Below, piece after piece: positions 3,079 to 19,041 of a DNA stretch of 32,000 bases (its first letter is position 1; the number at the start of each line of letters is the position of its first letter). The translations under genes were made by a program, and so were the position numbers. Origin of the DNA: Okeania sp. (GTDB taxonomy: Bacteria; Cyanobacteriota; Cyanobacteriia; Cyanobacteriales; Microcoleaceae); assembly GCF_035285525.1 (NCBI RefSeq), contig NZ_JAYKGW010000050.1, positions 1-32,000 of the forward strand, in the 5' to 3' direction. The notes beneath the pieces were generated by a model that had not been told where the DNA came from, searched no databases, and saw only the letters and a program-made list of their open reading frames with translations.

Positions 3079-3352
3079 GTAAGTATTCAGCCGTCAGCTA
3101 TCAGCTATCAGCTATCAGAAGAGTGCTTTTAATCTTTGATAAAAGCTTTATTAATTGAGCCAAAAAAATCTTACTAAAAAAGTCAGTCCACTTGATATTA
3201 GAGTCTATTTTCATTGAAATAATCTCCTTAAACACAGGATTTCTTTGCTGTTAACGTTAGCAAAGCTCCTCTGCAAGAGGCACTTCCGACCCAGGAAGTT
3301 GGCTGAGGTGCTAATAGCTGTTTGCGCAGCATTCCCTATGCGAAATGCTTAC
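3079..3352. mobile_element. MITE, family 1 (TIR GTAAG[C/T]ATT...), 274 bp, TSD TTATATGG
   Basis: Left end is GTAAGTATTCAGCCGTCAGC and right end is ...GAAATGCTTAC. It is flanked by identical TTATATGG at 3071-3078 and 3353-3360. No ORF inside. Confidence 0.8.
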
Positions 3353-3468
3353 TTATATGGTATGACTTTGTAATGACTTTACATATAATCTTCCTAATTA
3401 CTGCAAAGATCAAAAACATTGTTTCAGCAAACCCTATTTACTTTTTCCTCCTTCTTTATTCCTTACTT

Positions 3469-5508
3469 CTACCAATTAAATTTCATACCTAAATATTCTT
3501 CTAAACGTTGATTATGAATTTGAAAATAATCGTTTAATTTTTGTCGAAGTGATTCACTGATAGATGAATAGGAACCAGCATTTAATTTAGGATAATTTGG
3601 AATTTCATAATCTGGCAAATCTAGAAAATTGAAAACTTGTTTCATTGTGTTTTTCGGGTTACTATAAAACTCTTCACTTTTCAAAATTAGTAACTGTTCT
3701 CTGGGAAAAATAGCTAACCATTTCTTGAGAAATTCTACATATACACCAGCAGCTATATAATCTCCTGCATAATTCCAATAATAAGGATTAGAAATTTGCC
3801 TTAGTTTTTCAAGTTGAGAATTAAGAGCTATTTCACAAGAACGAAATTCTTGATTTAAACGTACTTGATGATAGTAGTGAGAAACTGCTCGATCTACAGG
3901 GTTTCTTAGTATTAAAATTAGCTTAATTTTGGGAAAGAAATGGAAAATTCTACAGGGAGCATATTCAGCATCAAAATAGGTAGTGCTTGCTTCTCCAGTT
4001 AGAAATTTTTTTGAGTCGGAAATAGGAGGAAAATGTGCCTGATACCAGTCTATACCTCTATGGAAATAAAAAGACCAAAAATGTATTTCTTTTTTGATGG
4101 AAGGTAAAATTTGGGGATGTTTTGTTATGTAGTTATAAAGAGAGGTAGTTCCTCCTTTACCGACTCCAATAATGAGAAAGTTTGCTGGAGATAATTGTTC
4201 TAAGTTCCAATGTTTTTGAACAAAGATAGGACGAGATTTATTGACGTGATTTTTACAAGCTTTTTGATAATATTTTATTGCTTCTTTAGTTTTACCTATT
4301 TGAGTTAAAGCTTCTGCTAAATTTAGGTAAATGGAAACTGAATTATTTTGACGTTCAATAAATTTTTGAAATAAATTTATTGTCTCTTCAAGTTTGTCTA
4401 GTTTTTCAAAAGTTTCCCAGAGACGAGTATCAGACCACCAAGCAAAATCAGGATTTAATTCTATAGCACGATGGTAAGTAATGGCAGCTTCTAACCATTT
4501 TTTTTGTTGGGTTAATACTAATGCTAGATGATAGTAAGATTGACTATTTTGTTTTGTTTTAACAACAGAATAAAATGAGTTTAATTGTTGTTCTAATTGA
4601 ATTTTTTTTCTGAATATTTTGGCGATTTCTTGATATAATTCTGTTTGCTTTGGTGATATTTCTAGTAACAAATAATAGATAATAATTGCTCCAGGAATTT
4701 GATTTGCTTGTGCTAGAGAATTTCCTAATTCTAGATATAGTTCTGGATTTTTTCTGATAATATTTAGTGCTTTTTGGTAAATAGGATATTGGTCTGGGTT
4801 TTGAATTGCATGACAGTAATAATTGATAGTTTTATCTAAATTTGATTGAGAAATTTGAGCAAAAGCATCTCCTAATTGAAGGAACATCCAAGGTAAATGA
4901 GGTTTAGTCTGAGCAACTTCTAAATAAGTAGCGATCGCTTCGTCTAATCTTTTTTGTTTTAGTAAGACATCTCCTAAACATTGGCGATACCAAGTAACTT
5001 TTGGATTGAGTTTTATTGTCTGACGATATGCAATTTCTGCTGCTTCTAGTTTTCCAGTTTGAAAGAGAATTTCTGCTAATTTTTGGTGAGTTCCTTTAAC
5101 TTCTGGTTTGAGTTTTATTGCTGTTTGATAACAAGTAATTGCTTCGGCAAATTCTCCTACGTTAACCAGGGCTTCCCCTAATTTATTATAATCCCAATAA
5201 CTATCAGGTTTAAGTTTAATGGTTTGGCGGTAAGCGATGACAGCTTCTGACCATTTTTCTAGTTTAATTAAGGCATTTCCTAAGTGGTGGTAAGACCAAG
5301 GAAAATCAGGATTTAGTTTGATAGTTTGACGGTAAGCAATAACAGCTTCTGACCACTTTTTTAGTTGAGTTAAAGCTTCTCCTAATTTATAGTAAGACCA
5401 AGAAAAGTTAGGGTTTGATTTGATGGCTTGGCGGTAGCTAGTAATAGCTTCTGACCACTTTTTTTGTTCTAGGAATTTTTCTCCTAAGTCGTAGTAATTT
5501 ATTTCCAT
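3469..5508 (-). CDS. TPR-repeat protein with C-terminal PAPS-dependent sulfotransferase domain (paralog 1)
   Basis: 679 aa. The N-terminal ~440 aa consist of degenerate 34-aa TPR units (recurring KWSEAVIAYRQTIKLNPDFPWSYHHLG). The last 238 aa (nt 3472-4185) form the sulfotransferase fold: 5'-PSB loop FLIIGVGKGGTTSL, TGEAS (putative catalytic Glu) and 3'-PB LRNPVDRAVSHY. No signal peptide or TM segment. Confidence 0.9.
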   Translation of the reverse strand: MEINYYDLGEKFLEQKKWSEAITSYRQAIKSNPNFSWSYYKLGEALTQLKKWSEAVIAYRQTIKLNPDFPWSYHHLGNALIKLEKWSEAVIAYRQTIKLKPDSYWDYNKLGEALVNVGEFAEAITCYQTAIKLKPEVKGTHQKLAEILFQTGKLEAAEIAYRQTIKLNPKVTWYRQCLGDVLLKQKRLDEAIATYLEVAQTKPHLPWMFLQLGDAFAQISQSNLDKTINYYCHAIQNPDQYPIYQKALNIIRKNPELYLELGNSLAQANQIPGAIIIYYLLLEISPKQTELYQEIAKIFRKKIQLEQQLNSFYSVVKTKQNSQSYYHLALVLTQQKKWLEAAITYHRAIELNPDFAWWSDTRLWETFEKLDKLEETINLFQKFIERQNNSVSIYLNLAEALTQIGKTKEAIKYYQKACKNHVNKSRPIFVQKHWNLEQLSPANFLIIGVGKGGTTSLYNYITKHPQILPSIKKEIHFWSFYFHRGIDWYQAHFPPISDSKKFLTGEASTTYFDAEYAPCRIFHFFPKIKLILILRNPVDRAVSHYYHQVRLNQEFRSCEIALNSQLEKLRQISNPYYWNYAGDYIAAGVYVEFLKKWLAIFPREQLLILKSEEFYSNPKNTMKQVFNFLDLPDYEIPNYPKLNAGSYSSISESLRQKLNDYFQIHNQRLEEYLGMKFNW

Positions 5509-5765
5509 ATTAATCCTATTTTATTTGTGAAAAAAACTGTAGGCGTTTGGTCTCCAAACCTAAGCAAAAATGGGATTTAGAAACCAAAACCCTGAGATAA
5601 GATATTACAACTTTTATTCATAACTTTAAATTCTCCTTGCCAATTAATTCTTCCTTATTTTTAGGGAATAGGGAACAGGGAAAAGGTAAGAGTTTCCGTT
5701 TTTTTTATCTACTTTTTGATTGGTAACAACCTATTTAGGATTAATATATGCAATGGATTTATTGG

Positions 5766-5870
5766 TGAGGTACATCTACGCGGGCAAAATGCACGGTTCC
5801 CGAAAAATCGTACTGGGAATATTTCATTATTAATATTTGTACTTCAGATACTTGAAATTTGCTGTATATA
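5766..5870 (-). promoter_or_regulatory. Conserved upstream block shared with 10737-10822 (possible promoter/operator of TPR-sulfotransferase genes)
   Basis: GTGAGGTACATCTACGCGGGC plus ATTATTAATATTTGTACTTCAGATACTTGAAATTTGCTGTATATA lie 260-360 nt upstream of the 5508 start. A near-identical pair of blocks lies upstream of the 10691 start. Confidence 0.35.
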
Positions 5871-5916
5871 TTCTCTCTTCCTTCTTCCTTCTTCCTTTTT
5901 CCTTTTTCCTTTTTCC

Positions 5917-8172
5917 TCAATTTTCCCAATTAAATTTCCTACCCAAATACTCTTCTAATTTTTGATTATGAGGTTGAAAGAAATTGCTTAATTTTTGATG
6001 CAATGATTTACTGATAGGTGGATAGGAACCTAAATTTAATTTCTTATAATCAGGAACTTTATAATTTGGCAAACCAAGAAAGTTAAAGACTTGTTTCATT
6101 ATAATTGTGGGAGTGCGATAAAATTCTGCTGTTGATAATATCAGAAATTGTTTTGACGGAAATCTAGTCATCCAATTTTGGATAAAATCTATATATATTC
6201 CAGTGCCTAAATAATATAATCTATGATGCCAATAACTACTATCTAAGGGAGAATTTTTATAAATCATTTCCCAAGTTTCTAACTCCTCATTTAATGCAGT
6301 TTCTAGATCGCGATTTTCTCTATTTATTCTCAACCAATGATAATAATGAGAAATAGCTCTATCCACAGGATTTCTCAACATAATAATTAACTTAATTTTT
6401 GAGCAATAACTAAACATTCTTTCTGGCGCTTCCCAATTTCCTAAATAACTTGGACTTGCTTCTCCAGTGATAAAATTTTGATGGTTAGGAATGGCAGGAA
6501 AATGGGAGAGATACCAATTTATGCCTTTGTCAAAATTCATCGACCAAAAATTTATTTCTTTCACCACTGGAGACAAAACTTGAGGATGTTGGGTTAGATA
6601 ACTAAATAAAGATGTAGTTCCTCCTTTTCCTACTCCAATAATTAGAAAATCAGGATTTTTAACTTCTTTTAAATGCCACTGTTTTTGGAAAAGATAGGGG
6701 TGAGATTTTATGGTTTGTTGGTAACAAGCAGTTTGGTAACAAATAATTGCTTCATTGATTTTATTCTGTTTTGTCAGAATTTCTCCTAGATGTAAATAAG
6801 ATAAAAATGAATCTGGATTTTTGTTAATAAATTGCCGATATAAATTGACTACTGTATCTAATTTATTGCAGCGGTCTAAAGTATTCCATAAATTATAATT
6901 TGACCAAGATAATTCTGGATTAATTTCTATGGCATGGAGATAAGATATAGCAGCTTCCTCCCATTTTTGTTGCTCAATAAAAGCATCTCCTAAAAATTGA
7001 TGGATTTCGGAAATATTGGGTTGAAGAGAAATAGCTTTTTGATAAGAGGCGATCGCTTCTTCTAATTTTTTTTGTTTGACTAGAGTATTTCCTAAGTAAT
7101 TCCATAACCAAAAATTACTGGGATTTTTTTGAATTTCTTGGCGATAAATAGTTTCTGCTTTTTCCCATTTATCTTGTTTCAGAAATACATTCCATAAAGA
7201 TATTTGCGGTCTATCTATTTCTGGAGAAAGTTGGATTGCTTTTAAGTAATTAAGAATAGCTGCTTCTAATTTTCCTGTATTTTCCAGAACATCTGCTAAT
7301 GAATTATAAGACCAATAATAATTAGGATTAATTTCTATGGCACGACGATATGCTGTTATAGCTTCTGACCAATTTTCTAGTTTGGCTAAAGCATCTCCTA
7401 ATGAGTTATGAGACCAATAAGAATTAGGATTAATTGCTATTGCTTGATGATATTTGGTAATAGCTTTTGTTTCTTTTTCTTGTTTTAAGAAAACTTCTCC
7501 TAAATTATGGTGAGCAAAGTAAATTTCGGGATTTATTTCTACTGCTTTTTCGAGAATAATTTCTGCTTCATCTAATCTACCTAATATAATTAAAGTTTCC
7601 CCTAATTTATTGTGAGACCAATAAGAATTAGGATTAATTGCTACTGCTTTTTGATAGGCAGTTACTGCTTCATGTAAATTATTTTGATTAGTTAGTGCTT
7701 CTCCTAATTTTTCATAAGATAAATAAAATCCGGGATTTAGTTTAATTGCTTGTCTGAATGCTGTAGCAGCTAAATCCCATTTTGATAATTCTAGAAAACT
7801 CTCTCCTAGTTTTTGATATGACCAAGAAAAGTTAGGGTTAAGTTCTATGGCACGTTGATAATAATTTACAGCTTTTTCCCACTGTTGAAGTTGCATTAAT
7901 GCTTCCCCTAATTTGTGATGAAACCAGGAAAAATTAGGGTTCAGTTTAATTCCATCTTGGTAAATAGTAATAGCTTGGGAAAATTGTTTTTGTTTGAGGT
8001 AAATATCTCCCAATTTTTGGTAAATTTCCCAATGTTCAGGTTGCAGTTCTATAACTTTTTCATAACAGGCGATCGCTTCGTCTATTTGGCTTTGGGATAA
8101 ATAATTTTCTGCTTGTTTTTGGTTTTGCAGTGCTATAGTTTGTAAGTCTTTATTTGAGGGCATAAAAGTCAT
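5917..8172 (-). CDS. TPR-repeat protein with C-terminal sulfotransferase domain (paralog 2)
   Basis: 751 aa with a long TPR array. Sulfotransferase motifs are FLIIGVGKGGTTSL, TGEASPSY and LRNPVDRAISHY. The C-terminus LEEYLGRKFNW is almost identical to paralogs 1 and 3. Confidence 0.9.
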   Translation of the reverse strand: MTFMPSNKDLQTIALQNQKQAENYLSQSQIDEAIACYEKVIELQPEHWEIYQKLGDIYLKQKQFSQAITIYQDGIKLNPNFSWFHHKLGEALMQLQQWEKAVNYYQRAIELNPNFSWSYQKLGESFLELSKWDLAATAFRQAIKLNPGFYLSYEKLGEALTNQNNLHEAVTAYQKAVAINPNSYWSHNKLGETLIILGRLDEAEIILEKAVEINPEIYFAHHNLGEVFLKQEKETKAITKYHQAIAINPNSYWSHNSLGDALAKLENWSEAITAYRRAIEINPNYYWSYNSLADVLENTGKLEAAILNYLKAIQLSPEIDRPQISLWNVFLKQDKWEKAETIYRQEIQKNPSNFWLWNYLGNTLVKQKKLEEAIASYQKAISLQPNISEIHQFLGDAFIEQQKWEEAAISYLHAIEINPELSWSNYNLWNTLDRCNKLDTVVNLYRQFINKNPDSFLSYLHLGEILTKQNKINEAIICYQTACYQQTIKSHPYLFQKQWHLKEVKNPDFLIIGVGKGGTTSLFSYLTQHPQVLSPVVKEINFWSMNFDKGINWYLSHFPAIPNHQNFITGEASPSYLGNWEAPERMFSYCSKIKLIIMLRNPVDRAISHYYHWLRINRENRDLETALNEELETWEMIYKNSPLDSSYWHHRLYYLGTGIYIDFIQNWMTRFPSKQFLILSTAEFYRTPTIIMKQVFNFLGLPNYKVPDYKKLNLGSYPPISKSLHQKLSNFFQPHNQKLEEYLGRKFNWEN

Positions 8173-8174
8173 TT

Positions 8175-8195
8175 CAGTTATTAGTTATCAGTTAT
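8175..8195. repeat. Heptamer repeat (CAGTTAT/TAGTTAT)x3 abutting the start codon of the 5917-8172 gene
   Basis: Read directly. It starts 2 nt from the reverse-strand ATG at 8172. Confidence 0.85.
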
Positions 8196-8540
8196 CAATA
8201 CCTCTGACTAAATCCAGAGACTTGAAATACTGAAGCTCATTTTTTTTCATCCTCTTAACAGGATTCGTCAAAAGTAATCTGAGTAATTTCTGAGGCAAAA
8301 ATTTAGCTATGTCAAAATGTGAAAGTCGAAATTAACCTCTGAGCAGAAATTTACTTTTCCTTTTCTAGAAAGTTCCGAGTTAAAAGTTAGGCGACTCATT
8401 TTTTTTAAGCTTTCTAGTATCTGGATTGAAGTCCCTAATAAATCTCATCATCGGATAAATATGTATTTGTTTTTTATCCTATATATTCCTTGACTAAATA
8501 TGTGTAATTAATTTGGGAAAAATGCTGACACAAAACCTTG

Positions 8541-10691
8541 TTAATCCCAATTAAATTTCATGCCAAGATACTCTTCTAATTTTTGATTATGGGGTTGAAA
8601 TAATTCAGAAAGTTGACCGCGCAAATGAGTATCTATTGGAGGATAAGAACCAGGGTAGTAATTTTTATATTCTAAAAGTTGATAATTTGGTAAACCTAGA
8701 AAATCAAAAACTTGTTTAGTTGTCGCTGCCGGATTTTCATACATATCCTCACTCTTTAATATTAAAAACTGTTTTCTTGGAAATATATTCATCCATTCTT
8801 GGAGAAAATATAGATATAAACCTAGACCTAAATACCTAGTTTTTTTACCTTGGAGAAAACTAGGACTGGTTTGAGACTGATTTATCATTTTTTGCAATAT
8901 TTTTGTTTCTAAAGCTACTACTTCTGCAAAACTTCTTTGTTCTTGTCCTAGTCGTTTATCCATATAGTAGTGAGAAACAGCTCTTTCTATAGGATTTCTC
9001 AATATAGCAATTAACTTAATGTTGGGAAAATAACTAAATACTTTACTTGCTGCTTCTACAGAATAAATATAGTTAGGAGTTGCTTCTCCTGTCAGAAAGT
9101 TTTGCTGTTCTGGAATAGCTGGAAATTGGGATAAATACCAATTAATTGTCTTGTAAGAATTAACATGAAAAAAGTACAGTTCTTTTTCTACAGCAGGTAA
9201 AACTGAGGGATGTTTAGCTAGATAAAAATAAAGAGATGATGTACCACCTTTAATTGCACCAATAATCAAAAAATTTGGTTTGCCTACTCCTGTTCTTTCT
9301 CCATATTTATTGATAAATTCTGGATGAGTTTGTGCTAATTTTAAGTGTAAAACTTTTTGATAGTAACTGGTAGCCTCCTGAATTTTATTTTGTTTAGCTA
9401 AAATATTCGCTAAATTCAGATAATGCTCAGGAAATTTTGGCTTAATCTCAATAGCTTCTTGGTAACAGTTAATCAATTTATTTAATTGATTTTGATCTAA
9501 TTTAACTAACTGGTAACTATGAATCGATCTGAGCTTATTATAAGCCATAAAAAAATCAGGTTGTAGTTGAATAGCTTTAATATAACAAGCGATCGCCTCA
9601 TCTGAATTTCCTGTTTCTAAAAGAGCGTCTCCTAAGTCTTTATTAAACCAAGCTAAATCTGACTTTAAATTGATAGCTTTTTGATAATAAATAATTGCTT
9701 CATCTATTAATCCTTTTTTGTGCAGCACATATCCTAACTGATAATAAAACCAATAATAGTCAGGATTTTTTTTCAGAGCAAGTTTATAGTTGACGACTGC
9801 TTCATCCCATTTTTTTGTTTTGAGTAATACTTCCCATAAATTATGGTAGTACCAATAAAAATCCGGCTGAATATCTATAGCTTTTTGATAAGCTAAAACT
9901 GCTTCATCCCACTTTTTTAGTTTGCTTAAAGCTTTCCCTAAACTGTTGTAATCATTTGGGATATTTGGGTTTATCTTTATCGCATATTCATAAGCAGTTA
10001 CAGCTTCATCCCACCTTTTGAGTTCTATTAAAACCTCACCTAAATTTTTATATAACTCCTCAGAATTAGAATTAGTCTTAGTGGCACGACGATAATAAAC
10101 CACAGCTTCATCCCATCGTTTTAATTCCTTTAATGCTTTGGCAATTTTGTGATAAGACCAGGGAAAATTTGGTTCTAATTCCATGAATTTATCATAATTA
10201 TTTACAGCTTCATCCCACTTTTGTAATTGGATTAATACTTCTGCAAGTTTGTGATAAGACCAAGGAAAATCTGGTTTTAATTCTATAACTTTGCGAAAAG
10301 CAATTGCCGCTTCGTTCCACTTTTTCAGTTCCATCAATGCTGTGCCTAATTTTTGGTAATACCAAGGAAAATTAGGATTATTCTTGATAGCATTGCGGTA
10401 ACTAATGGTTGCTAAATCCCACTTTTTTTCTTGAAAATATAGATTAGCTAGATTAGAATGAGATTGACTAAAATGGGGATTAATTACAATGGCTTTTTGA
10501 TAATATTCCTGGGCTAATTCTTGATTGCCCATAGCTTCAAGTACCTGGCCTTTAGTATTACAAACTAACGCCAAATATTCTAGTTTTTCTAATGCTTGAT
10601 TACAAAATATCTCAGCTTCATTTAATTTTCCTTCTGCTAAACAAGATTGTGCTTTCTGGTTTAAATCTATTACTGATATTTCCTGGTTCAC
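8541..10691 (-). CDS. TPR-repeat protein with C-terminal sulfotransferase domain (paralog 3)
   Basis: 716 aa with a TPR array (KWDEAV..Y...I...P.F.W.YH.L). Sulfotransferase motifs are FLIIGAIKGGTSSL, TGEATPNY and LRNPIERAVSHY. C-terminus is LEEYLGMKFNWD. Confidence 0.9.
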   Translation of the reverse strand: MNQEISVIDLNQKAQSCLAEGKLNEAEIFCNQALEKLEYLALVCNTKGQVLEAMGNQELAQEYYQKAIVINPHFSQSHSNLANLYFQEKKWDLATISYRNAIKNNPNFPWYYQKLGTALMELKKWNEAAIAFRKVIELKPDFPWSYHKLAEVLIQLQKWDEAVNNYDKFMELEPNFPWSYHKIAKALKELKRWDEAVVYYRRATKTNSNSEELYKNLGEVLIELKRWDEAVTAYEYAIKINPNIPNDYNSLGKALSKLKKWDEAVLAYQKAIDIQPDFYWYYHNLWEVLLKTKKWDEAVVNYKLALKKNPDYYWFYYQLGYVLHKKGLIDEAIIYYQKAINLKSDLAWFNKDLGDALLETGNSDEAIACYIKAIQLQPDFFMAYNKLRSIHSYQLVKLDQNQLNKLINCYQEAIEIKPKFPEHYLNLANILAKQNKIQEATSYYQKVLHLKLAQTHPEFINKYGERTGVGKPNFLIIGAIKGGTSSLYFYLAKHPSVLPAVEKELYFFHVNSYKTINWYLSQFPAIPEQQNFLTGEATPNYIYSVEAASKVFSYFPNIKLIAILRNPIERAVSHYYMDKRLGQEQRSFAEVVALETKILQKMINQSQTSPSFLQGKKTRYLGLGLYLYFLQEWMNIFPRKQFLILKSEDMYENPAATTKQVFDFLGLPNYQLLEYKNYYPGSYPPIDTHLRGQLSELFQPHNQKLEEYLGMKFNWD

Positions 10692-10736
10692 AGTATTTTC
10701 TCCTGGTAATTATCTATTACAGCCGATTCTACTTTT

Positions 10737-10822
10737 GTGAGGTACACCCACGCGGGCTAGGAACTTTTAATTATTAATCTTAATATTTGTACTTCTTATA
10801 CTTGGAATCTGCTGTAAATATA
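10737..10822 (-). promoter_or_regulatory. Second copy of conserved upstream block (see 5766-5870)
   Basis: GTGAGGTACACCCACGCGGGC plus TTATTAATCTTAATATTTGTACTTCTTATACTTGGAATCTGCTGTAAATATA lie 46-130 nt upstream of the 10691 start. Confidence 0.35.
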
Positions 10823-10983
10823 CAGCAAGCATTCAGCTATTAACATTCAGCTATCAGCTTTTAAAATAATTCAGCAAAGACTAAGATTAACTGACAGAAA
10901 TATTTCATTGATAACTTTTAATTCTCGTTAGATTGATACCTTATAAGTTTTTGTCTTATCTAAACTGTAATACTTACCAAAAA

Positions 10984-12906: not shown

Positions 12907-12933
12907 TACTTTTGGATTTAATCAGCAGAGCAA

Positions 12934-12968
12934 TAATTATTAATTATTAATTATTAATTATTCATTAT
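12934..12968. repeat. Heptamer repeat (TAATTAT)x5 spanning the stop codon of the 12954-14753 gene
   Basis: Four perfect units and one variant unit. It overlaps the ...GIMNN* end of the upstream gene and fills most of the 47-bp spacer to the next gene. Confidence 0.85.
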
Positions 12969-14753
12969 TCCGGCTTTTTTGTATAAATAAGATAAGAGTG
13001 TATTGCTAGAAATAATCTCTGCTTTACTAACATTTTTCAATGGTTCAAACATAAACTTGTTATAAAGAGGACAGAACAAGTAATTTTTGACATTTAATTT
13101 TCCTGGTTTAAGAAACTTTTCCCACTCTTTCCAGGGTACTAACCAAGCCCTTAATTTAACATTATAATATTTATAATTTTTAGCTTCTTTACATATTAAT
13201 TCTTTTCCTAATTCAGTCCATGAGATATGTTTTCCTGAGTCAAAAATAGCCTCAATTTGATTAATACAAGTTTGCAAAAAATTATGTTGAGGACGAGCAG
13301 CAAAGGATGTCAGAGCAAATGCTGAACCCAAAGTTACTAAATCAAAATCTTTTAAATGAGATATAAAATTAGTATAGAGATTTTTAAACACAATTGTATC
13401 TAGATCAATCCACATTCCTCCATTATCATTTAATAACTTTATTCTTAGGTAATCTGCTTTATGTGCTGGTAATAATGTTTTGGTAAAAATTCGAGGATGA
13501 ATTTCTTTGAGATATGCTTTAACATTTTGAGGATTAACTAAAATAACATCTGCTAAACCAGAATGAATTTTCATTGTTTCTAAGCATAATTTTAAGTAGT
13601 CTGGCATTTCTTGAGAATAGACATTTTCCCAATATACCCAGATAGTTTTGGGAATATAAGATTCATCTACTTGTTTCAGGGCATAACCTAATTTTTCATG
13701 GAATAAATAGTTATTTGGTTTAATTTTTGTAGCTGTTTGATAAGCTGTTATAGATTCATCCCATTTTTCTTTTTGAGCAAGAGCATCTCCTAAAATTTGA
13801 TAAAACGAAGGTAAATTTGGATTGGTTTCTATCACAGTTTGACACTCTATAATAGCTGCATCTAATTTTCCTATTTTTAGTTTAATTTCAGCTAATTTTC
13901 GCCGAATTTCCCAAATATCTGATTTGATTTCTATCACTTTTTGATAATATTTTTCTGCTGATTCTAAGTCTCCCTTTTGCTCAAAAATATCTCCTAATTT
14001 TTTGTAAGACCAGGGAAAATTAGGGTTAATTTCTATAGCCAGGCGAAAATTACTAATAGCTAAATTTAATTCTCCTCTTTCTTGAAATATTTTCCCTAGT
14101 TTATGGTGAACTGCCCAAAAGTCAGGTTTCAATTCAATTGCTTTTTGATAATAATTTATTGCCCCGTTGAAGTCTTTTGTTTTCAGTGAAATATCTCCTA
14201 AATTTTGATAAGCATTTGCCAAAAAAGGATTTAATTCTATGGCTTTCTGGAAATAAGCGATCGCCTCTTCTATCTCATCATTTTCTAAACAGTTTTTTCC
14301 CTGTTTTAAATATTCTGATGCTTGAGGATAATATGCTTCTAAAGTCAATGCTTGTTCTTGACAATCTCTAGCTAATTCAACTTTTCCTAATTCCTGCCAA
14401 ATTTTTCCTAAATTCCGATAAAAACCAGGAATATTTGGTTTAATTCCTATCGCTTCTCGGTAACATTCAATTGCTAACTGCCATTGTTTTTGTTGTGCAT
14501 ATATACTCCCTAAATTAGCATAGCTCTCTGCTAAATTTGGTTGTTGATTTATGGCTTTTATGTACCACTCTTTGGCTTGATTTATTTCACCCATTTTTTG
14601 CAGAATATTTCCCAATATTTTACAGGTAGGTGGAAAATCAAGCTCTATTTCTAATACTTGCTGACAAGCTGTTATTGCCTCTTCTAATTTTCCTTGAGTT
14701 AAATATATTTCTGCTTTTTGATTTAAGTGAATTACTGAGATTATCTTGCCCAT
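12954..14753 (-). CDS. TPR-repeat protein with C-terminal DXD glycosyltransferase-like domain (GT32 / capsular-polysaccharide-synthesis-like)
   Basis: 599 aa. About 370 aa of TPR are followed by IPKTIWVYWEN...HKADYLRIKLLNDNGGMWIDLDTIV. This matches the 'ADxxRxxxLxxxGGxYxDxD' sugar-binding signature of GT32/Gly_transf_sug-type enzymes. The family assignment is from memory of the motif only. Confidence 0.75.
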   Translation of the reverse strand: MGKIISVIHLNQKAEIYLTQGKLEEAITACQQVLEIELDFPPTCKILGNILQKMGEINQAKEWYIKAINQQPNLAESYANLGSIYAQQKQWQLAIECYREAIGIKPNIPGFYRNLGKIWQELGKVELARDCQEQALTLEAYYPQASEYLKQGKNCLENDEIEEAIAYFQKAIELNPFLANAYQNLGDISLKTKDFNGAINYYQKAIELKPDFWAVHHKLGKIFQERGELNLAISNFRLAIEINPNFPWSYKKLGDIFEQKGDLESAEKYYQKVIEIKSDIWEIRRKLAEIKLKIGKLDAAIIECQTVIETNPNLPSFYQILGDALAQKEKWDESITAYQTATKIKPNNYLFHEKLGYALKQVDESYIPKTIWVYWENVYSQEMPDYLKLCLETMKIHSGLADVILVNPQNVKAYLKEIHPRIFTKTLLPAHKADYLRIKLLNDNGGMWIDLDTIVFKNLYTNFISHLKDFDLVTLGSAFALTSFAARPQHNFLQTCINQIEAIFDSGKHISWTELGKELICKEAKNYKYYNVKLRAWLVPWKEWEKFLKPGKLNVKNYLFCPLYNKFMFEPLKNVSKAEIISSNTLLSYLYKKAGIMNN

Positions 14754-15188
14754 TGTTTTATTTTTGATAAATATTCGTGATATTTAAGTTGATTACTAAG
14801 TTGATAATTAAGGTAAGATGATTAGTGATTTTAGCATAAAGTTAAAAGTTAACTAGCTATGAGCTTTTAGCAGCTCTGGGTTAAAATACTCTGCTTCTAT
14901 CAGCAGGGAACCAACTACTAAAATTAGCTAATAATCTTTTTATTCATAACTTTTAATTGTCCCTAGACATTTATTCCTCCTGCCAATAAAATTAGTTAAT
15001 CACTATAACAAGGGTAAATTATTTGTGAAAAACATTGTAGGGTTTTTGTCAGATCAAGCTCATTTTCAGTTGGATGTGGAGACCAAACTACTACAATAAA
15101 ATCTTACAACCAGTTTAGGATTGCTATAATTACTGATAACTAATAGCTGAATACTTACAAATACACAACTATAATATTACAAACTTTT

Positions 15189-18100
15189 ATGACTCCTAAA
15201 GTAAGCGTAATTATTCCGGTTTATAACTGTGAACTTTACATCGCCCAAGCAATTGAAAGTGTCTTGAATCAAACTTATACTGACTATGAAATTATTGTTA
15301 TCAATGATGGTTCCACAGATAATACCTATCAAATATTACAACCATACATGACAAAAATTCGTTATTTTTATCAAGAGAATAAAGGATTATCTGCTACTCG
15401 TAACCAAGGCATAAAAATGGCAAAAGGAGAATTAATTGCTCTTCTGGATGCTGATGATTTATTTCTGTCTGATAAACTTGAAAAACAAGTAGCTATTTTT
15501 GATGCTCAACCAAATATAGGTTTAGTACAAAGTGGGTGGCGAGTTGTTAATGAAAAAGGAGAAAAAATTGAAGATGTTGAACCTTGGCATAAATCTCCAG
15601 AATTAGATTTAGTAAGTTGGTTAAAATGGAAAGCTACTAATCCTAGTAGTATGATGTTTCGGAAGGAATGGTTGGAAAGAGTAAATGGGTTTAATGAAGA
15701 GTTTCGTAGATTAGAAGATTTTGACATAGTAATTCGATTAGCTTTAGCAGGTTGTCAAGCTACTTGGTTTCCTAAAGTTGCTGTCTGTTATCGTCAACAT
15801 AGTGGCAATATGACCAGAAATTTACTTGCTCAAATAGCAGTAGAGGAAAAAATTTTAGATGAGCTTTTTTCTAATTCTAATCTACCTTTAGAAATTCAAC
15901 ATTTAGAAAGAGAATTACGCTACGGTTCTCTAATTTGGAATTGTTGGTGTTTATATAAATCTGGCTACTTTGCTGAAATGGCTGATTATTTGCATAAATC
16001 TTTAAATTTTTCTCCTGTTTCTGTGCTTAAAACTATCTGTGAATGGCTCTATTATTTTCACTATTATGCTTCTCTAGAAAACTATTCATTTAATTCAGTT
16101 TCTTTGAATCAAATACCAGAGTGGCAATTTTTAATAAATAAAATTATGCCAAATGGTTTACCATTGGTGAGCGTGGTTATTCCGACTTTTAATAATGCTG
16201 ATTATATTGTTAAAGCTATTGAAAGTGTTTTTGCTCAAACTTATACTTTTTGGGAGATTATTGTTGTTGATGATGGTTCTACCGATCGTACTTACCAAGT
16301 TTTAGAATCTTACCTTAATCAAATAGACTTTTTGCCAAATTTTCCAACAGGAAATAGACTACAGAAAACAGAGAGAAGTCAAAATTTACCTTCCGACTTT
16401 TCCCAGAACTTTCCAACAGGAAACAGACAAGAGAAACCAGGAGCAAATTTTCCCGAAACAGAGAGTAGTCAAAATTTACCTTCTGACTTTTCCCAGAACT
16501 TTCCAACAGGAAACAGACTACAGGAAACAGAGAGTAGTCAAAATTTACCTTCCGACTTTTCCCAGAACTTTCCAACAGGAAACAGACTACAGGAAACAGA
16601 GAGTAGTCAAAATTTACCTTCCGACTTTTCCCAGAACTTTCCAATAGGAAACAGACTACAGGAAACAGAGAGTAGTCAAAATTTACCTTCCGACTTTTCC
16701 CAGAACTTTCCAATAGGAAACAGACAAGAGAAACCAGGAGCAAATTTTCAGGAAACCGGAAGTAACCAAGATTTAACTTTAGACTTTTTGTCAAACTCTT
16801 CCACAGGAAATAAACAAGAGGAAGCCGATAAAAATATTCAGAAAAAAGAGAGTAATCAAAATTCAACTTTGACATTTGCCAGAGGTCTAATTAAATATGT
16901 ATATCAAGAAAATCAAGGACCATCAATCGCTCGGAATTATGGTATAGAAATAGCTCAGGGAAAATATATCGCCTTTCTCGATGCAGATGACTTTTTTCTA
17001 CCCGAAAAATTAGCCGAACAAGTAGGATGTTTTGCAGAAGATTCAACTTTAACAATGGTGCAAACTGGGTGGAGATTTGTTGATGAGAAAGGTCAGACTA
17101 TTAAAGATGTAAAACCCTGGGAAAATAGTACGGAATTAGACTTAGAAAATTGGTTAATTTGGCAAGCGACTTTACCCAGTGCGATGATGTTTAAAAGTGA
17201 ATGGTTAAAAGTTAATGGTGGGTTTGACAAACGATATTTTGGCATTGAGGATTTAGAAATAGTTTTGCGGTTAGCTTTAACCGGAGGAAAAGCGACTTGG
17301 TTACGCAAAGTTTGTGTTTGTTATCGACAGCGTAGTAGTAGTGTCTCTGGTTTGGATAATCGACAAAAAATTACTCAGGAATTAGAAAAATTATTAGATG
17401 ATTTTTTCGATAAACCTAATTTACCTACTGCCATACGTCAAATAGAAAACCAGATAAAATATCGGTCTCTACTTTGGAATTGTTGGCGTTTATATAAGGC
17501 TGGTAATTTATCAGAAATGGCTACTTATTTGCAGAAGTCTTTGAGTTATACTTCTGATTCTCCCACAACAGCAATTTGTACTTGGATAGAATTATTTACT
17601 AAGCTAGATAGTCAAGAAGGAAATCAATTTAATGCTTATAGTTTTAGTCAGTTGCCAGAATGGAAAAAATTAATTAGTAATATTTTTAATCCAGTTGTGC
17701 CGAGGGTAAGTGTAATTATTGCCACCTACAATAATGCTAACTATATTTTAGAGGCGATCGCCAGTATTTTTAATCAAACTTATACGTCTTACGAAATAAT
17801 AGTTATTGATGATGGCTCTACTGATAATACTCGTCAAATTTTAGAACCTTATTTAGATAAAATTCGCTATGTTTATCAAGAAAATAAAGGAGTCTCTCAC
17901 GCCAGAAATTTAGGTTTAGAAATGGCGCAGGGAGAATTTATTTCTTTTCTTGATGCTGATGACTTTTTCCTACCAGATAAACTGGCAAAACAAGTAGCTG
18001 TTTTTGATAGTCGTCCTTCTCTAGGAATTGTTCATAGTGGGTGGCGTTTAATTAATGAAAAAGGAGAGAAAATTTCGGATATAGAATTATGGCATGGTTC

Positions 18101-18662
18101 CCTAGAATTAGACTTAGAAACTTGGGTAGTTTGGAAACCTGTAACTATTTCTATGATGTTTCGTAAAAGTTGGATAAAAAGCGCTGGAGGTTTTGATACT
18201 CGTTGGCATCATGGAGAAGATATTGACTTAGTTTTGCGTTTATCTATTAATGGTTGTGAGGCAGTTTGGTTGCCAAAAGTTACTTATTGTTATCGTCAAC
18301 ATCAGTGCAATGCTACGAGAAAATCTAGTCAACAAGCTGTTAGTATGATGGCTGTTTTAGATAACTTTTTTGCCAGAGAAAATTTATCAATATCTATTCG
18401 TAAATTAGAGGCAAAATCTCGTTATTATACTTTAAGTTGGTTAGCATGGCAAGCACATCGAAATGGAGATTTAATTGAGATGGATAAATATCTAAGAAAA
18501 GCTTGTAAATATACTCCTTTATCTATTATAGAAACTATCGATCATTGGGTAGAAAGTTTTCATAATCTTTATCAAGATTATGGTTATGATTTTGATGTTT
18601 ATAGTTTCACAAATTCAGATGTTTGGCAAAAATTAATGTTAGATATGATTATTAGTATTTGA
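15189..18662 (+). CDS. Tri-modular family-2 glycosyltransferase (three GT2 domains, each with a conserved ~170-aa tail)
   Basis: 1157 aa. The three modules start at KVSVIIPVYN (aa 4), LVSVVIPTFN (aa ~328) and RVSVIIATYN (aa ~838). Each has (I/V)(N/D)DGSTD, QENxG, LDADD (DXD) and an (E/I)ED(F/L/I)(D/E) acceptor motif. Each is followed by a shared tail CYRQ..........L(D/E)..F......L...IR..E...RY..L.W.CW.LYK.G...EM..YL.KSL. Confidence 0.9.
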   Translation: MTPKVSVIIPVYNCELYIAQAIESVLNQTYTDYEIIVINDGSTDNTYQILQPYMTKIRYFYQENKGLSATRNQGIKMAKGELIALLDADDLFLSDKLEKQVAIFDAQPNIGLVQSGWRVVNEKGEKIEDVEPWHKSPELDLVSWLKWKATNPSSMMFRKEWLERVNGFNEEFRRLEDFDIVIRLALAGCQATWFPKVAVCYRQHSGNMTRNLLAQIAVEEKILDELFSNSNLPLEIQHLERELRYGSLIWNCWCLYKSGYFAEMADYLHKSLNFSPVSVLKTICEWLYYFHYYASLENYSFNSVSLNQIPEWQFLINKIMPNGLPLVSVVIPTFNNADYIVKAIESVFAQTYTFWEIIVVDDGSTDRTYQVLESYLNQIDFLPNFPTGNRLQKTERSQNLPSDFSQNFPTGNRQEKPGANFPETESSQNLPSDFSQNFPTGNRLQETESSQNLPSDFSQNFPTGNRLQETESSQNLPSDFSQNFPIGNRLQETESSQNLPSDFSQNFPIGNRQEKPGANFQETGSNQDLTLDFLSNSSTGNKQEEADKNIQKKESNQNSTLTFARGLIKYVYQENQGPSIARNYGIEIAQGKYIAFLDADDFFLPEKLAEQVGCFAEDSTLTMVQTGWRFVDEKGQTIKDVKPWENSTELDLENWLIWQATLPSAMMFKSEWLKVNGGFDKRYFGIEDLEIVLRLALTGGKATWLRKVCVCYRQRSSSVSGLDNRQKITQELEKLLDDFFDKPNLPTAIRQIENQIKYRSLLWNCWRLYKAGNLSEMATYLQKSLSYTSDSPTTAICTWIELFTKLDSQEGNQFNAYSFSQLPEWKKLISNIFNPVVPRVSVIIATYNNANYILEAIASIFNQTYTSYEIIVIDDGSTDNTRQILEPYLDKIRYVYQENKGVSHARNLGLEMAQGEFISFLDADDFFLPDKLAKQVAVFDSRPSLGIVHSGWRLINEKGEKISDIELWHGSLELDLETWVVWKPVTISMMFRKSWIKSAGGFDTRWHHGEDIDLVLRLSINGCEAVWLPKVTYCYRQHQCNATRKSSQQAVSMMAVLDNFFARENLSISIRKLEAKSRYYTLSWLAWQAHRNGDLIEMDKYLRKACKYTPLSIIETIDHWVESFHNLYQDYGYDFDVYSFTNSDVWQKLMLDMIISI
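16338..16880 (+). repeat. In-frame coding tandem repeat array (units of 69, 90, 69, 69, 69, 90 and ~87 bp) inside GT2 module 2
   Basis: Unit boundaries are 16338, 16407, 16497, 16566, 16635, 16704, 16794. Units 16497-16565 and 16566-16634 are identical, and 16635-16703 differs by 1 nt. The unit encodes NFPTGNRLQETESSQNLPSDFSQ. The 90-bp variants add QEKPGAN. Confidence 0.95.
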
Positions 18663-18819
18663 TTAAAAAGAAGGAAGAGGAAAGAAGCAATGAGGAAGAA
18701 AGAAATTATAACTGAATGTTTACTTCATTCATTAAAAAGCTAAATGCTTACCTCTTTGTTTTCTAGAACTAACTTGTCTAAGAATATTCATGTATAAACA
18801 AACTTCAATAAAGAAATAT

Positions 18820-19041
18820 GTAAGCATTCAGCTATTAGCTGTTAGCCATCAGCAACAAAAACCTCAAGTTTCAGAAAGATATTTAAAGGAATAAAGAAAG
18901 TGAAAACTGGCTTTTATAGTCAAATAAAATTTATGATTTTTCGGGAACCTTATAATAATACTTCTATCACAAACTAGAAGCACTCTTGTGATAGCTATTA
19001 GCTGACGGCTGTTTGCCCAGCATTCCGCAGGAAATGCTTAC
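18820..19041. mobile_element. MITE, family 1, 222 bp, TSD AGAAATAT
   Basis: GTAAGCATTCAGCTATTAGC...GGAAATGCTTAC, flanked by AGAAATAT at 18812-18819 and 19042-19049. Confidence 0.8.

Follow-up and report, generated by a model that had tools for sequence, protein, structure and literature searches.

The question raised by this locus from Okeania sp. is what is made by a three-module sugar-chain builder facing five sugar modifiers, each of them equipped with the same kind of long helical, putatively docking arm, an arrangement common to relatives of this marine filamentous cyanobacterium. Giving this view an even chance, we read the locus as a lineage-conserved, strain-variable island whose enzymes assemble and tailor a sulfated glycan in the cytoplasm, the product most likely being a surface polysaccharide or exo-polysaccharide. 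Within the window (the whole stretch analysed, positions 1 to 32,000 of contig NZ_JAYKGW010000050.1), six ORFs are present at 3469-18662, and the six-gene observation of the initial annotation is confirmed. On the minus strand, a TPR-CE4 deacetylase and a TPR-GT32-like transferase accompany three TPR-sulfotransferases. Divergent from these, the plus strand encodes GT2x3, a protein of 1157 aa with three paralogous GT2 modules. The catalytic domains all lie above the Pfam gathering scores and belong to carbohydrate-active or glycan-modifying families. As the initial annotation had called them, the C-terminal domains fall in Sulfotransfer_1/3, Polysacc_deac_1 and Caps_synth/Gly_transf_sug, the GT2 modules fall in Glycos_transf_2, and the catalytic motifs were located intact in all six proteins. 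Based on Pfam, each of the five minus-strand N-termini holds 6-12 TPRs covering about 350-490 aa, which bears out the shared architecture of an N-terminal TPR array and a C-terminal catalytic domain. None of the window genes is broken and all are under purifying selection, with dN/dS values of 0.13-0.37 in the TPR as well as the catalytic parts (0.136 for mnmE, for comparison).

GT2x3 (15189-18662, plus strand; Glycos_transf_2 E=5e-114, 4 stretches) is a soluble protein with its modules encoded at 15189-16154, 16155-17684 and 17685-18659. Every module joins a GT2 domain to a helical tail about 100 aa long, contains a DADD (at 15447, 16980 and 17952) and an ED motif, and is 48-50% identical to the others. 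Aligning the modules reveals an in-frame 189-aa insert of 23-aa (69-bp) tandem repeats at 16317-16883 (plus strand), in a loop of module 2 flanked by DDGSTD and YVYQENQG. TRF reports a tract at 16455-16725 with a period of 69, 3.9 copies and 99% matches, and the insert length among orthologues ranges from 0 to >700 aa. These orthologues are 85-88% identical, with a dN/dS of 0.18-0.24. The top PDB match of GT2x3 is K4 chondroitin polymerase (K4CP; 2z87, E=2e-38), but this similarity is generic; since the lead of K4CP (88.8 bits, best domain) over 6p61 (80.5 bits) is marginal, it carries no information on a GAG backbone.

The three sulfotransferases are all encoded on the minus strand. ST1 (3469-5508, 679 aa; Sulfotransfer_1 E=2e-19 plus TPR families) has its TPR array at about aa 1-424 (nt 4237-5508) and its C-terminal sulfotransferase domain at aa 443-679 (nt 3472-4182), with KGGTTS at 4141-4158, TGEAS at 3985-3999 and RNPVDRAVSHY at 3874-3906. 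Its orthologues show 80% identity in an Okeania genome (L050) and 69% in Trichodesmium erythraeum (L008), with a dN/dS of 0.25-0.35. ST2 (5917-8172, 751 aa; Sulfotransfer_1/3) combines a TPR array at about aa 1-488 with a sulfotransferase domain at aa 507-751 (nt 5920-6654) that is 55% identical to that of ST1, has its three motifs at 6610-6627, 6454-6468 and 6343-6375, and shows a dN/dS of 0.21-0.33. ST3 (8541-10691, 716 aa, GTG start; Sulfotransfer_1/3) carries its domain at aa 472-716 (nt 8544-9278), 47-50% identical to those of ST1 and ST2, with KGGTSS at 9234-9251, TGEAT at 9078-9092 and RNPIERAVSHY at 8967-8999. The consensus motifs KGGT(T/S)S, TGEA(S/T) and RNP(V/I)(D/E)RA(V/I)SHY are thus found in all three. 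ST1 matches 3rnl, the NST structure 1nst and 3-OST in the PDB, and in the sulfotransferase domains the PAPS-binding loops and the Glu base align. The NST (1nst, 8.9e-24) and 3-OST (2.4e-23) scores are so alike that structure matches do not separate N- from O-sulfation; the N-sulfation hinted at earlier is not supported by them, and ST1-ST3 may at most be candidates for it.

The TPR-CE4 deacetylase was annotated at 10984-12906 (minus strand). This frame is indeed open up to a TTG at 12906, but the true start is most likely Met30 (nt 12819), which gives a protein of 611 aa (10984-12819; Polysacc_deac_1 E=3.5e-28) identical to the 611-aa database entry P0241, annotated as ‘tetratricopeptide repeat protein [Okeania sp.]’. 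Its 12 TPRs are encoded at 11599-12819 and the NodB-homology domain at 10987-11562. All five CE4 motifs (TYDDGP, HSYSH, RPPFG, DSKDY and LMHD) were located, with no variation at the catalytic residues across the alignment. An AF2 model (pLDDT 93, pTM 0.76) shows 12 TPRs followed by CE4, joined by an ordered linker (pLDDT about 86-94). Among CE4 enzymes of solved structure, an acetylxylan esterase (7fbw/7y51, E=1e-41) comes nearest, followed by PgdA (2c1g), and the N-deacetylation assigned earlier went too far; it is a candidate activity of this domain. The closest CE4-domain relatives are membrane-anchored, cell-envelope-type enzymes. Among the 120 closest relatives of the TPR array, 79 bear this sulfotransferase domain and 4 a CE4. 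The fusion came about by exchange of the membrane anchor, in a CE4 that otherwise stands alone, for a TPR array.

The fifth tailoring gene (12954-14753, minus strand) encodes the TPR-GT32-like transferase of 599 aa, with TPRs at aa 1-350 and a Caps_synth/DXD domain at aa 367-599 (nt 12957-13655), identified by Pfam in the isolated domain (Caps_synth E=1.3e-15, Gly_transf_sug E=4e-8). In an alignment with yeast Och1 (9n3s), its DLD motif (13398-13406) falls on the DMD. Among 1.84e9 proteins only 4 representatives fall below E=1e-30, one being a 590-aa orthologue. Between this gene and GT2x3 lies a 435-bp divergent intergenic region (14754-15188), presumably a bidirectional promoter region. The ~70 bp nearest GT2x3 are conserved with Trichodesmium, and a promoter consensus scan of the region gave matches no better than chance.

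As for conservation, nearly every GT2x3 orthologue, whether in Trichodesmium, Okeania, Dapis or another MAG or contig, stands divergent to genes for TPR-fused tailoring enzymes. The layout recurs in T. erythraeum IMS101 (NC_008312, 7.32-7.34 Mb), several Okeania genomes, Dapis M229, Microcoleaceae MAGs and the loci L057 and L051/L053. Because it is found in so many genomes, the arrangement is not due to chance. The adjacency is kept across genera although the flanks differ between lineages, and the tailoring set varies by genome (ST, GT61, GT10, GT32, CE4, methyltransferase). The neighbourhood proposed initially is therefore conserved, but not the exact six genes as a unit: CE4 and GT32 occur in some genomes only, without gene-for-gene conservation. 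A 71.7-kb contig (L051/L053) has about 13 TPR-bearing genes tightly packed in one row, a compact, operon-like array with gaps of about 10-100 bp that includes at least 7 sulfotransferase domains, 2 GT10, a methyltransferase and a TPR-CE4. Pseudogene debris is seen elsewhere: Okeania has remnants of GT32, L050 has pieces of sulfotransferase genes, and in L024 GT2x3 is frameshifted and carries an IS605 insertion, to give examples.

With a maximum 19-residue Kyte-Doolittle hydropathy of 1.0-1.4, none of the six proteins has a TM helix or hydrophobic leader, as had been reported. Also in line with the initial annotation, no Wzx/Wzy/Wza/Wzc, ABC-2 exporter or priming transferase is found among the window ORFs >=100 aa. 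An ABC transporter of the ABC_membrane_2/SbmA-BacA type at 30012-31703 lies 11 kb from the island, with unrelated genes in between. The island is bounded by the housekeeping genes psaK and DUF3122/mnmE, and in Okeania SIO2B3 the 10 kb past it hold neither an ABC-2 exporter or flippase nor a polymerase or priming transferase. The link to an exported polysaccharide is consequently by analogy only. This absence had been taken to suggest a non-exported or protein-directed product. The absence stands, but it is weak evidence, since cyanobacterial EPS genes are typically scattered and glycan loci without export genes are normal (PMC4390846).

The product would most likely be a glycan that is sulfated and in part deacetylated, exported by machinery whose genes lie elsewhere, and of the sulfated EPS or sheath type typical of marine filamentous cyanobacteria. 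Substrate, order of steps, TPR function and export are proposals. At the cytoplasmic face, GT2x3 would build or extend the backbone, perhaps with one sugar of a repeat added per module, after which the divergently transcribed TPR enzymes would decorate it. The GT32-like enzyme may add a branch sugar, the CE4 may take off N- or O-acetyl groups, and the three paralogous HS-type sulfotransferases may put PAPS-derived sulfate at different positions. The tailoring enzymes are pictured with an N-terminal superhelix of about 10-14 TPRs and a short ordered linker to the catalytic domain; this arm could be a common docking or recruitment module keeping them at the polymerase/export complex or the nascent chain. 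Genes for priming, PAPS supply and export would lie elsewhere in the genome.

Cyanobacteria do make sulfated EPS with cytoplasmic sulfotransferases encoded in GT clusters, and many of their sulfotransferase genes sit in partial EPS clusters (PMC8205485). The xss (synechan) cluster of Synechocystis PCC 6803 likewise combines several glycosyltransferases with cytoplasmic PAPS sulfotransferases acting on a glycan (Maeda et al. 2021, PMC8205485). However, xss has a priming GT, Wzx, Wzy, PCP and the XssQRS regulators, all missing from the Okeania window, and unlike xss the island has a single three-module GT2 as backbone enzyme. The Xss sulfotransferases are classed as ST3 with TPRs unmentioned, whereas every tailoring enzyme here is TPR-fused. 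E. coli K4CP, from an ABC-transporter-dependent capsule/O-polysaccharide pathway, is like GT2x3 a soluble multi-GT-module enzyme without TM segments, but has two modules where GT2x3 has three, each with a helical tail. In such pathways the polymer is finished and modified in the cytoplasm and then exported; no KpsMT/Wzm/Wzt genes are linked to the Okeania island. The known bacterial GAG-type capsules are, to our knowledge, unsulfated. The sulfotransferase domains match animal NDST and 3-OST, and the island also encodes a deacetylase. Unlike in NDST, these are separate proteins, the CE4 is nearest to acetylxylan esterase and PgdA, and the epimerase and EXT-type polymerase of the heparan-sulfate system are missing. 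In the production of the exopolysaccharides Pel and PNAG, PelB-PelA and PgaA-PgaB likewise pair a TPR domain in function with a polysaccharide deacetylase of the CE4 type, and weak matches to the PgaA and BcsC TPR models were seen. Those TPRs are periplasmic, in the export porin and on a separate polypeptide, whereas the Okeania TPRs are fused to enzymes without signal peptide, which must be cytoplasmic where they depend on PAPS and NDP-sugars, given where these occur.

Counted against the polysaccharide reading are the lack of linked export and priming genes, the varying tailoring set and the debris at some loci, as well as the RTX and PEP-CTERM proteins inside some distant cluster versions and the fact that eukaryotic joins of a TPR arm and a catalytic domain are best known from protein-modifying OGT/SPY, the top structural matches. 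A protein-directed glycosylation and sulfation, in which the superhelices pick a protein acceptor as OGT/SPINDLY do and the glycan is built and sulfated before export, is nonetheless rather unlikely. OGT and SPINDLY (GT41) are cytoplasmic, with a long N-terminal TPR superhelix continuous with the catalytic domain as in the Okeania enzymes, and rank first in Foldseek with the whole TPR-CE4 model, whose TPR array runs directly into the catalytic domain. Yet the match covers the generic superhelix (TM 0.3-0.37); none of the catalytic domains is of the GT41 kind, their folds being those of sulfotransferases, CE4 and GT-A. That all enzymes are cytoplasmic with no glycan export genes linked would suit a surface-protein acceptor that leaves the cytoplasm directly, for instance a PEP-CTERM protein or RTX/T1SS cargo like oscillin, SwmA or S-layer proteins. 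In L066/L067 and L025, the GT2 gene is separated from the TPR enzymes by small RTX proteins whose C-termini are of the T1SS type; L066/L067 also have secreted PEP-CTERM proteins immediately upstream of the GT2 gene, and a Microcoleus TPR-ST has a CE4, an SLH protein and an RTX protein as its flanks. The window itself holds no RTX, PEP-CTERM or other candidate acceptor, and as RTX genes are common in filamentous cyanobacteria, their proximity may be chance. A three-module GT2 with up to 7-8 sulfotransferases also suits a repeating polymer better.

It is quite improbable that, instead of a polymer, the island makes a Nod-factor-like sulfated oligosaccharide, soluble or lipid-anchored, or else a sulfated glycolipid or natural product. 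Nod-factor synthesis follows the same logic of a cytoplasmic GT2 (NodC), a CE4 (NodB) and a PAPS sulfotransferase (NodH), and a Planktothrix TPR-ST locus adjoins acyl-CoA dehydrogenase, AMP-ligase and halogenase-like genes. The CE4 does match the NodB model, but its 119.7 bits are far under the cut-off of 240, and the NodC model likewise reaches 83 against a cut-off of 550. Moreover, GT2x3 has no membrane synthase domain, the nearest CE4 relatives are of the envelope type, and no acyltransferase, PKS or NRPS occurs in the window or syntenic loci. We also strongly doubt that there is no common pathway and that paralogous TPR-enzyme genes with different substrates piled up beside an unrelated GT2 gene through TPR-mediated duplication and shuffling. 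The strain-dependent content and the pseudogene fragments fit this, as do gaps of 134-435 bp between the island genes, wider than tight operon spacing, and the 74-80% DNA identity of intragenic TPR units, which favours recombination. Against it, the divergent adjacency survives across genera and flanks and takes the compact form in L051/L053, purifying selection acts on the window genes, none of which is disrupted, and every catalytic domain is from a carbohydrate-active or glycan-modifying family.

The TPR-sulfotransferase fusion is common rather than novel in architecture. TPR-sulfotransferases are already widely annotated but uncharacterised: no functional study of the family was found in the literature, and NCBI lists a ‘tetratricopeptide repeat-containing sulfotransferase family protein’ with the same TPR + Sulfotransfer_1/3 order in Microcoleus, Nostoc, Planktothrix, Okeania, Dapis and others. 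Many of these relatives have 3-5 TPRs in a length of about 390-445 aa, although forms of 590-700 aa exist; those of the window are 679-751 aa and, unlike the family known from annotation, are arrayed with TPR-CE4, TPR-GT32 and GT2x3. The Sulfotransfer_1/3 domains of the NCBI-named proteins are 42-70% identical to that of ST1, and T. erythraeum, with 30 sulfotransferase genes, has the highest number among the genomes listed (PMC8205485).

The ORF listing and Pfam place four TPR-fused enzyme genes of the island (window 3469-18662) on the minus strand. Three of these are the TPR-sulfotransferases ST1 (3469-5508), ST2 (5917-8172) and ST3 (8541-10691), each with N-terminal tetratricopeptide repeats (TPRs) and a C-terminal Sulfotransfer_1/3 domain, and the fourth is TPR-CE4 (10984-12906), with N-terminal TPRs and a C-terminal Polysacc_deac_1 domain. 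Pfam further identifies the minus-strand TPR-GT32-like gene (12954-14753), in which the N-terminal TPRs are followed by Caps_synth/Gly_transf_sug. The plus-strand gene GT2x3 (15189-18662) encodes repeated Glycos_transf_2 domains. Every Pfam match of the six proteins exceeds the gathering threshold, and none of the proteins contains a segment near the hydropathy of a TM helix. Outside the island, the window holds psaK, DUF3122, a small Ser/Thr-rich ORF, mnmE, xisH/xisI, DUF2062, an SQR-like/TauE/rhodanese/MBL group and a BacA-type ABC transporter, and no polysaccharide priming, flipping, polymerising or export function was recognised among these remaining genes. The initial annotation had described six adjacent genes with intact catalytic motifs, no TM helices and no export or priming genes in the window. 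Its layout and domains hold with small corrections, the ORF listing, Pfam and structure-sequence comparison being in agreement, and all of the motifs that it quoted were located. Since domains, motifs, hydropathy and the lack of glycan-export genes in the window all agree, this observation is confirmed.

ST1, ST2 and ST3 all score 62-70 bits for Sulfotransfer_1, against a cut-off of 22. When compared by sequence to solved structures, the sulfotransferase domain matches the bacterial protein 3rnl, heparan-sulfate NST (1nst, 8.9e-24) and 3-O-sulfotransferases, with 3rnl, the best match, carrying merely the deposited title 'Sulfotransferase'. In the alignment to 1nst, the 5'-PSB loop reads KGGTTS vs KTGTTA, the 3'-PB RNPVDRAVSHY vs NPADRAYSWY, and the catalytic Glu lies in TGEAS vs FEKS. 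NST and 3-OST match the window sulfotransferases with equal scores, so that the NST-class N-sulfation proposed initially fits the data as well as O-sulfation does.

The TPR-CE4 protein contains the motifs TYDDGP, HSYSH, RPPFG, DSKDY and LMHD, comprising the Asp-His-His metal triad and the catalytic Asp and His, and these catalytic residues are invariant in a 20-sequence alignment. The protein is identical to a 611-aa NCBI entry (P0241), 'tetratricopeptide repeat protein [Okeania sp.]'. The mechanical ORF 10984-12906 begins with TTG and encodes 640 aa; P0241 starts 29 codons later, at the ATG at 12819, which coincides with the beginning of the first TPR helix. By sequence, the CE4 domain is related to the solved structures 7y51/7fbw (1e-41) and also to S. 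pneumoniae PgdA. As these nearest solved relatives are mixed, being an acetylxylan esterase (7fbw/7y51) and a peptidoglycan GlcNAc deacetylase (PgdA), the N-deacetylation claimed by the initial annotation cannot be told apart from O-deacetylation. Its analogy to NDST proved to be a likeness of parts, not membership: NDST carries two activities on one polypeptide, whereas here the CE4 gene is separate from the three sulfotransferase genes.

The closest relatives of the CE4 domain (50-55% identity) are standalone cyanobacterial proteins of ~234 aa, which have a few basic residues followed by a hydrophobic anchor at the N-terminus. This N-terminus suggests that these are cell-envelope enzymes. 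In TPR-CE4 and six further fused copies, the TPR array sits exactly in the place of the anchor, with the catalytic residues invariant. The GGG(D/N)RS loop after LMHD, present in the standalone membrane-anchored relatives, is absent from all TPR-fused CE4 copies in the CE4 alignment (A1); the site of the lost loop corresponds to aa 602-610 of the window protein (nt ~11080-11103, minus strand). This loss may reflect a changed substrate or environment after a move to the cytoplasm.

The GT32-like domain scores 58 bits for Caps_synth (cut-off 24.5) and 34 for Gly_transf_sug (cut-off 23), and weakly matches yeast Och1 (9n3s), with DLD aligned on DMD. Its relatives are mostly standalone proteins of ~240 aa. 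TPR-GT32 fusions are rare, with 4 representatives below 1e-30 among 1.84 billion cluster representatives.

GT2x3 (Glycos_transf_2, 378 bits; DADD x3) consists of three ~320-aa modules with 48-50% mutual identity, each formed by a GT2 domain and a ~100-aa helical tail. The helical nature of the tail was also noted in an AlphaFold2 (AF2) model of a GT2 module, which had a pLDDT of 52.7 on an alignment of the three paralogues only. The best solved-structure match of a GT2 module is K4CP, the chondroitin polymerase of E. coli K4, merely marginally ahead of other GT2s. This match was rejected as a sign of a GAG backbone, the best-domain score being barely above that of unrelated GT2s. Module 2 carries an in-frame loop insert of 189 aa (16317-16883, plus strand; core array 16455-16725) made of 69-bp (23-aa) tandem repeats, with 99% DNA identity between copies. 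The insert is hypervariable and Q/N/S/E-rich, and probably disordered. It is missing from the orthologues of most Okeania, MO_207 and L051, a locus on a 71.7-kb metagenomic contig; it measures ~65 aa in T. erythraeum IMS101 and >700 aa in Okeania SIO3I5 (L017), where it reaches past the contig end, and it often breaks assemblies. A role of the insert as a required docking site for the TPR arms was considered and rejected: because the insert-free orthologues of Okeania, MO_207 and L051 keep their TPR-enzyme arrays, it cannot be a general docking site.

The TPR units of the island follow a distinctive near-consensus repeat, ...KWxEAVxAYRQAIxLNPNFPWSYxKLGEAL..., and 79 of the 120 closest relatives of the CE4 protein's TPR array carry the sulfotransferase domain of the TPR-sulfotransferases. 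An AF2 model of TPR-CE4, built on the 20-sequence alignment (pLDDT 93.1, pTM 0.76), shows 24 helices (12 TPRs), an ordered linker of ~17 residues and the CE4 barrel. According to Foldseek, the CE4 part of the model resembles the acetylxylan esterase 7fbw (TM 0.92, rmsd 1.6), and OGT and SPINDLY rank at the top for the whole model, via the TPR superhelix. As in OGT/SPINDLY, the N-terminal superhelix of the model is continuous with the catalytic domain; however, their GT41 domain is absent, Pfam giving no GT41-type family for the six island proteins. What is unusual here is the TPR arm, which sits on enzymes of unrelated chemistry and is kept under selection. The best explanation for it would be a shared module for recruitment to the polymerase, an export complex, the other enzymes or the chain itself.

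Conservation was examined by a GT2x3 protein scan covering one genome per species. GT2x3 orthologues with 70-90% identity occur in T. erythraeum IMS101 (island at NC_008312 7,319,873-7,342,977), in several Okeania and two Dapis genomes and in various Microcoleaceae MAGs. Where the upstream sequence is long enough, the nearest gene divergent from GT2x3 almost always encodes a TPR-fused enzyme, with more of them behind it. T. erythraeum, Okeania and Dapis have TPR-sulfotransferases orthologous to ST1, ST2 and ST3, and relatives' islands also contain other catalytic domains, as TPR-GT61 and TPR-GT10 (fucosyltransferase-like). Downstream of GT2x3, DUF3122-mnmE follows in the window, Trichodesmium and Dapis; the window mnmE shares ~88% identity with the copies of Trichodesmium, Okeania and Dapis. 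In most Okeania, the genes that follow encode a pentapeptide-repeat protein and a uvrC-like product, assigned in both cases by sequence only. Because this flank differs between lineages, the adjacency of GT2x3 and the TPR enzymes has survived rearrangement. The initial annotation's grouping could have been scattered in related genomes; instead, the association recurs.

The gene content of these loci varies. The island of Dapis M172 has two TPR-GT61, three TPR-sulfotransferases and a TPR-CE4 and adjoins psaK as in the window. On contig L057, GT2x3 is divergent from TPR-GT61, TPR-GT61 and TPR-CE4. The 71.7-kb contig (L051/L053; 36.7% GC) encodes a 1301-aa multi-GT2 protein, divergent from a tightly spaced co-directional array of, in order, a TPR-sulfotransferase, two TPR-GT10, a TPR-sulfotransferase, an 1184-aa TPR-methyltransferase-sulfotransferase, a TPR-only protein, two TPR-sulfotransferases, a small UPF0175 gene, a TPR-sulfotransferase, a TPR-only protein, a TPR-CE4, a TPR-sulfotransferase and a TPR protein with a 400-aa domain without Pfam match. 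In the more distant L066/L067, a single GT2+tail gene is divergent from TPR-GT61, a TPR-methyltransferase and a TPR-sulfotransferase. What recurs is the pairing of a GT2(+tail) backbone enzyme with a toolkit that varies, not a six-gene operon of fixed content. In pairwise comparisons with the orthologues of Okeania and Trichodesmium, dN/dS amounts to 0.13-0.37 for ST1-3 and 0.18-0.24 for GT2x3, with 0.136 for mnmE, and TPR and catalytic parts are both constrained. The island is real, conserved and selected. Distant GT2 homologues in Pseudomonas, Variovorax and Flavobacterium (25-31% identity) lie in ordinary O-antigen/EPS-like loci and were set aside as too remote to inform.

The initial description of an undescribed system stands for GT2x3 with its TPR toolkit, for which no paper was found, and all six proteins stay below the cut-off of every NCBIfam model. 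It does not extend to the TPR-sulfotransferase architecture itself: NCBI uses this name for such fusions, which are plentiful in Microcoleus, Nostoc, Planktothrix and other genera. The literature search found nothing relevant on TPR-sulfotransferases, be it in cyanobacteria or in any other bacterium.

PAPS and NDP-sugars occur in the cytoplasm. This cofactor logic, together with the lack of secretion signals, places all island enzymes there. The most economical reading would be a cytoplasmic pathway of glycan assembly and tailoring, the product of which would differ between strains, analogous to serotype-variable O-antigen and capsule loci and to xss, the sulfated-EPS (synechan) cluster of Synechocystis (PMC8205485). 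The priming GT, Wzx, Wzy and PCP/OPX of such a Wzx/Wzy-type cluster are absent from the island; none was found among window ORFs of at least 100 aa, and domain tblastn and partial Pfam checks recognised none in the 10 kb on either side of the syntenic loci. In Okeania SIO2B3, the ST1 orthologue closes the island; an IS605 element and unrelated genes come next, without an exporter. As in ABC-transporter-dependent glycan assembly, GT2x3 is a soluble multi-module GT with three modules on one chain and no TM segment, but the window has no linked ABC-2 exporter: Wzm/Wzt or KpsM/KpsT are not linked, and the sole ABC transporter (30012-31703) is of the ABC_membrane_2/SbmA-BacA type and non-adjacent. 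Cyanobacterial EPS genes typically form small units scattered over the chromosome (PMC4390846), and Maeda et al. called sulfotransferase-containing clusters 'more or less partial' (PMC8205485). Because of this dispersal, the missing export and priming genes are no strong argument against an exported polysaccharide. We infer the chemistry and the acceptor; on this reading, the island would represent a new way of organising the biosynthesis of sulfated glycans in cyanobacteria.

The TPR arms might instead serve a protein acceptor, as in OGT. In L066/L067 and L025, the cluster includes genes of small RTX proteins whose C-termini are type-I-secretion-like, secreted proteins with a PEP-CTERM sorting motif are encoded just upstream of the GT2 gene in L066/L067, and a Microcoleus TPR-sulfotransferase gene has a standalone CE4 and the genes of an SLH and an RTX protein as neighbours. 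This role is considered unlikely, as no such gene is present in the window and these organisms commonly have RTX genes. More specifically, the arms could act as OGT-like acceptor selectors of a cytoplasmic Golgi-like set (HS-type sulfotransferases, deacetylase and GT32, joined by GT61 and GT10 in relatives). Such a set would put together, on a protein or another non-classical acceptor, a heparan-sulfate-like glycan that is de-N-acetylated and multiply sulfated; a candidate acceptor would be a surface protein exported from the cytoplasm by a type I system. We regard this as quite improbable; if true, it would be the first bacterial protein glyco-sulfation machinery.

A Nod-factor-like oligosaccharide or natural product is less likely, because the NodC and NodB models stay far below their cut-offs (83 bits vs 550 and 119.7 vs 240, respectively) and acyltransferase and PKS genes are absent; GT2x3 has no TM segment, and the window has no NodA-like acyltransferase. 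The genes could also share no pathway and mark a mere recombination hotspot, which is less likely given the conserved adjacency, the selection and the existence of a compact operon-like version.

In marine cyanobacteria such as Trichodesmium, sulfated glycans outside the cell influence how colonies form, how metals are bound and how particles (TEP) are produced. To our knowledge, xss in Synechocystis, for which heterologous expression has been carried out (PMC13125312), is the only cyanobacterial sulfated-EPS pathway that has been dissected, and we know of no products assigned to the 30 sulfotransferase genes of T. erythraeum. The island offers a defined, conserved and experimentally tractable set, with one three-module backbone enzyme and interchangeable tailoring enzymes. 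One long type of TPR arm on all tailoring enzymes, up to about 13 and of Golgi-like families, regardless of their chemistry (sulfo-, glycosyl- and methyl-transfer, deacetylation) is a new organisational principle, and we are not aware of a description of such uniform tagging in bacterial glycan synthesis. As a recruitment tag, the arm would account for soluble tailoring enzymes staying on the nascent chain and could serve the engineering of designer sulfated polysaccharides; if it selects proteins, the finding would carry far more weight.

Sister genomes show signs of gene decay, and turnover of the island is quick. GT32 is intact in the window and present only as fragments in several Okeania, where remnants lie beside GT2x3 (L010 9271-9858, L016 6362-9750, L018 3548-3891). 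Okeania SIO2B3 has a string of sulfotransferase fragments (L050 7321-9852), and Okeania sp. KiyG1 a frameshifted GT2x3 with an IS605-family insertion (L024 8220-12899). In the 71.7-kb contig, the last array protein (L053 18965-21010; 681 aa) has a C-terminal ~400 aa without Pfam match, possibly a further unclassified tailoring-enzyme domain. RTX (HemolysinCabind)/PEP-CTERM sites were located at L066 7514-8098 and 8799-9344, L067 5554-6273, 6956-7675 and 8748-9365, L025 2955-3542 and L016 14811-15293; the small RTX proteins, with tails of the ...DDFELF type, are encoded between GT2 and the TPR-enzyme genes in distant or sister clusters. The RTX and PEP-CTERM proteins of these clusters are possible protein acceptors.

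Exact-protein contig look-ups returned none for GT2x3 or P0241, and for ST1 no more than a read-assembly contig of 2.4 kb. The window gave no matches to Rfam families and no tRNAs, and promoter and terminator consensus scans of 12800-19400 remained at chance level. No ORF in the 2.1-kb gap between psaK and ST1 (1321-3468) exceeds 67 aa. An M50 peptidase gene lies between psaK and the island in Dapis M172 and beside sulfotransferase genes in a Trichodesmium-like TARA contig; tblastn found no M50 pseudogene remnant in the gap, which likewise has no Rfam family or tRNA.

The group at 25014-29286, all on the minus strand, comprises an SQR-like flavoprotein (25014-26309), a TauE/SafE anion exporter (26863-27699), a rhodanese with YgaP-like TM (27648-28187) and a metallo-beta-lactamase-fold protein (28588-29286), and probably serves in sulfide/persulfide detoxification. 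The Okeania loci with the other downstream flank lack this group within the 10 kb sampled, so a relation to the sulfotransferases is improbable. The xisH/xisI pair (23002-23759), between mnmE and DUF2062, was found in some relatives (Okeania SIO3I5, L026) and went undetected in other sampled mnmE-containing loci. Intergenic heptamer tandem arrays occur at 588-630, 3094-3118, 5876-5917, 12934-12969, 20958-20992, 21260-21291 and 22739-22773, with the units AATAATT, TCAGCTA, TCTTCCT, TAATTAT, GATAATT, TAGGGAG and TCAGTTA. These include sites directly downstream of ST2 and at the GT32/CE4 junction, and the arrays resemble the STRR-type repeats of filamentous cyanobacteria.
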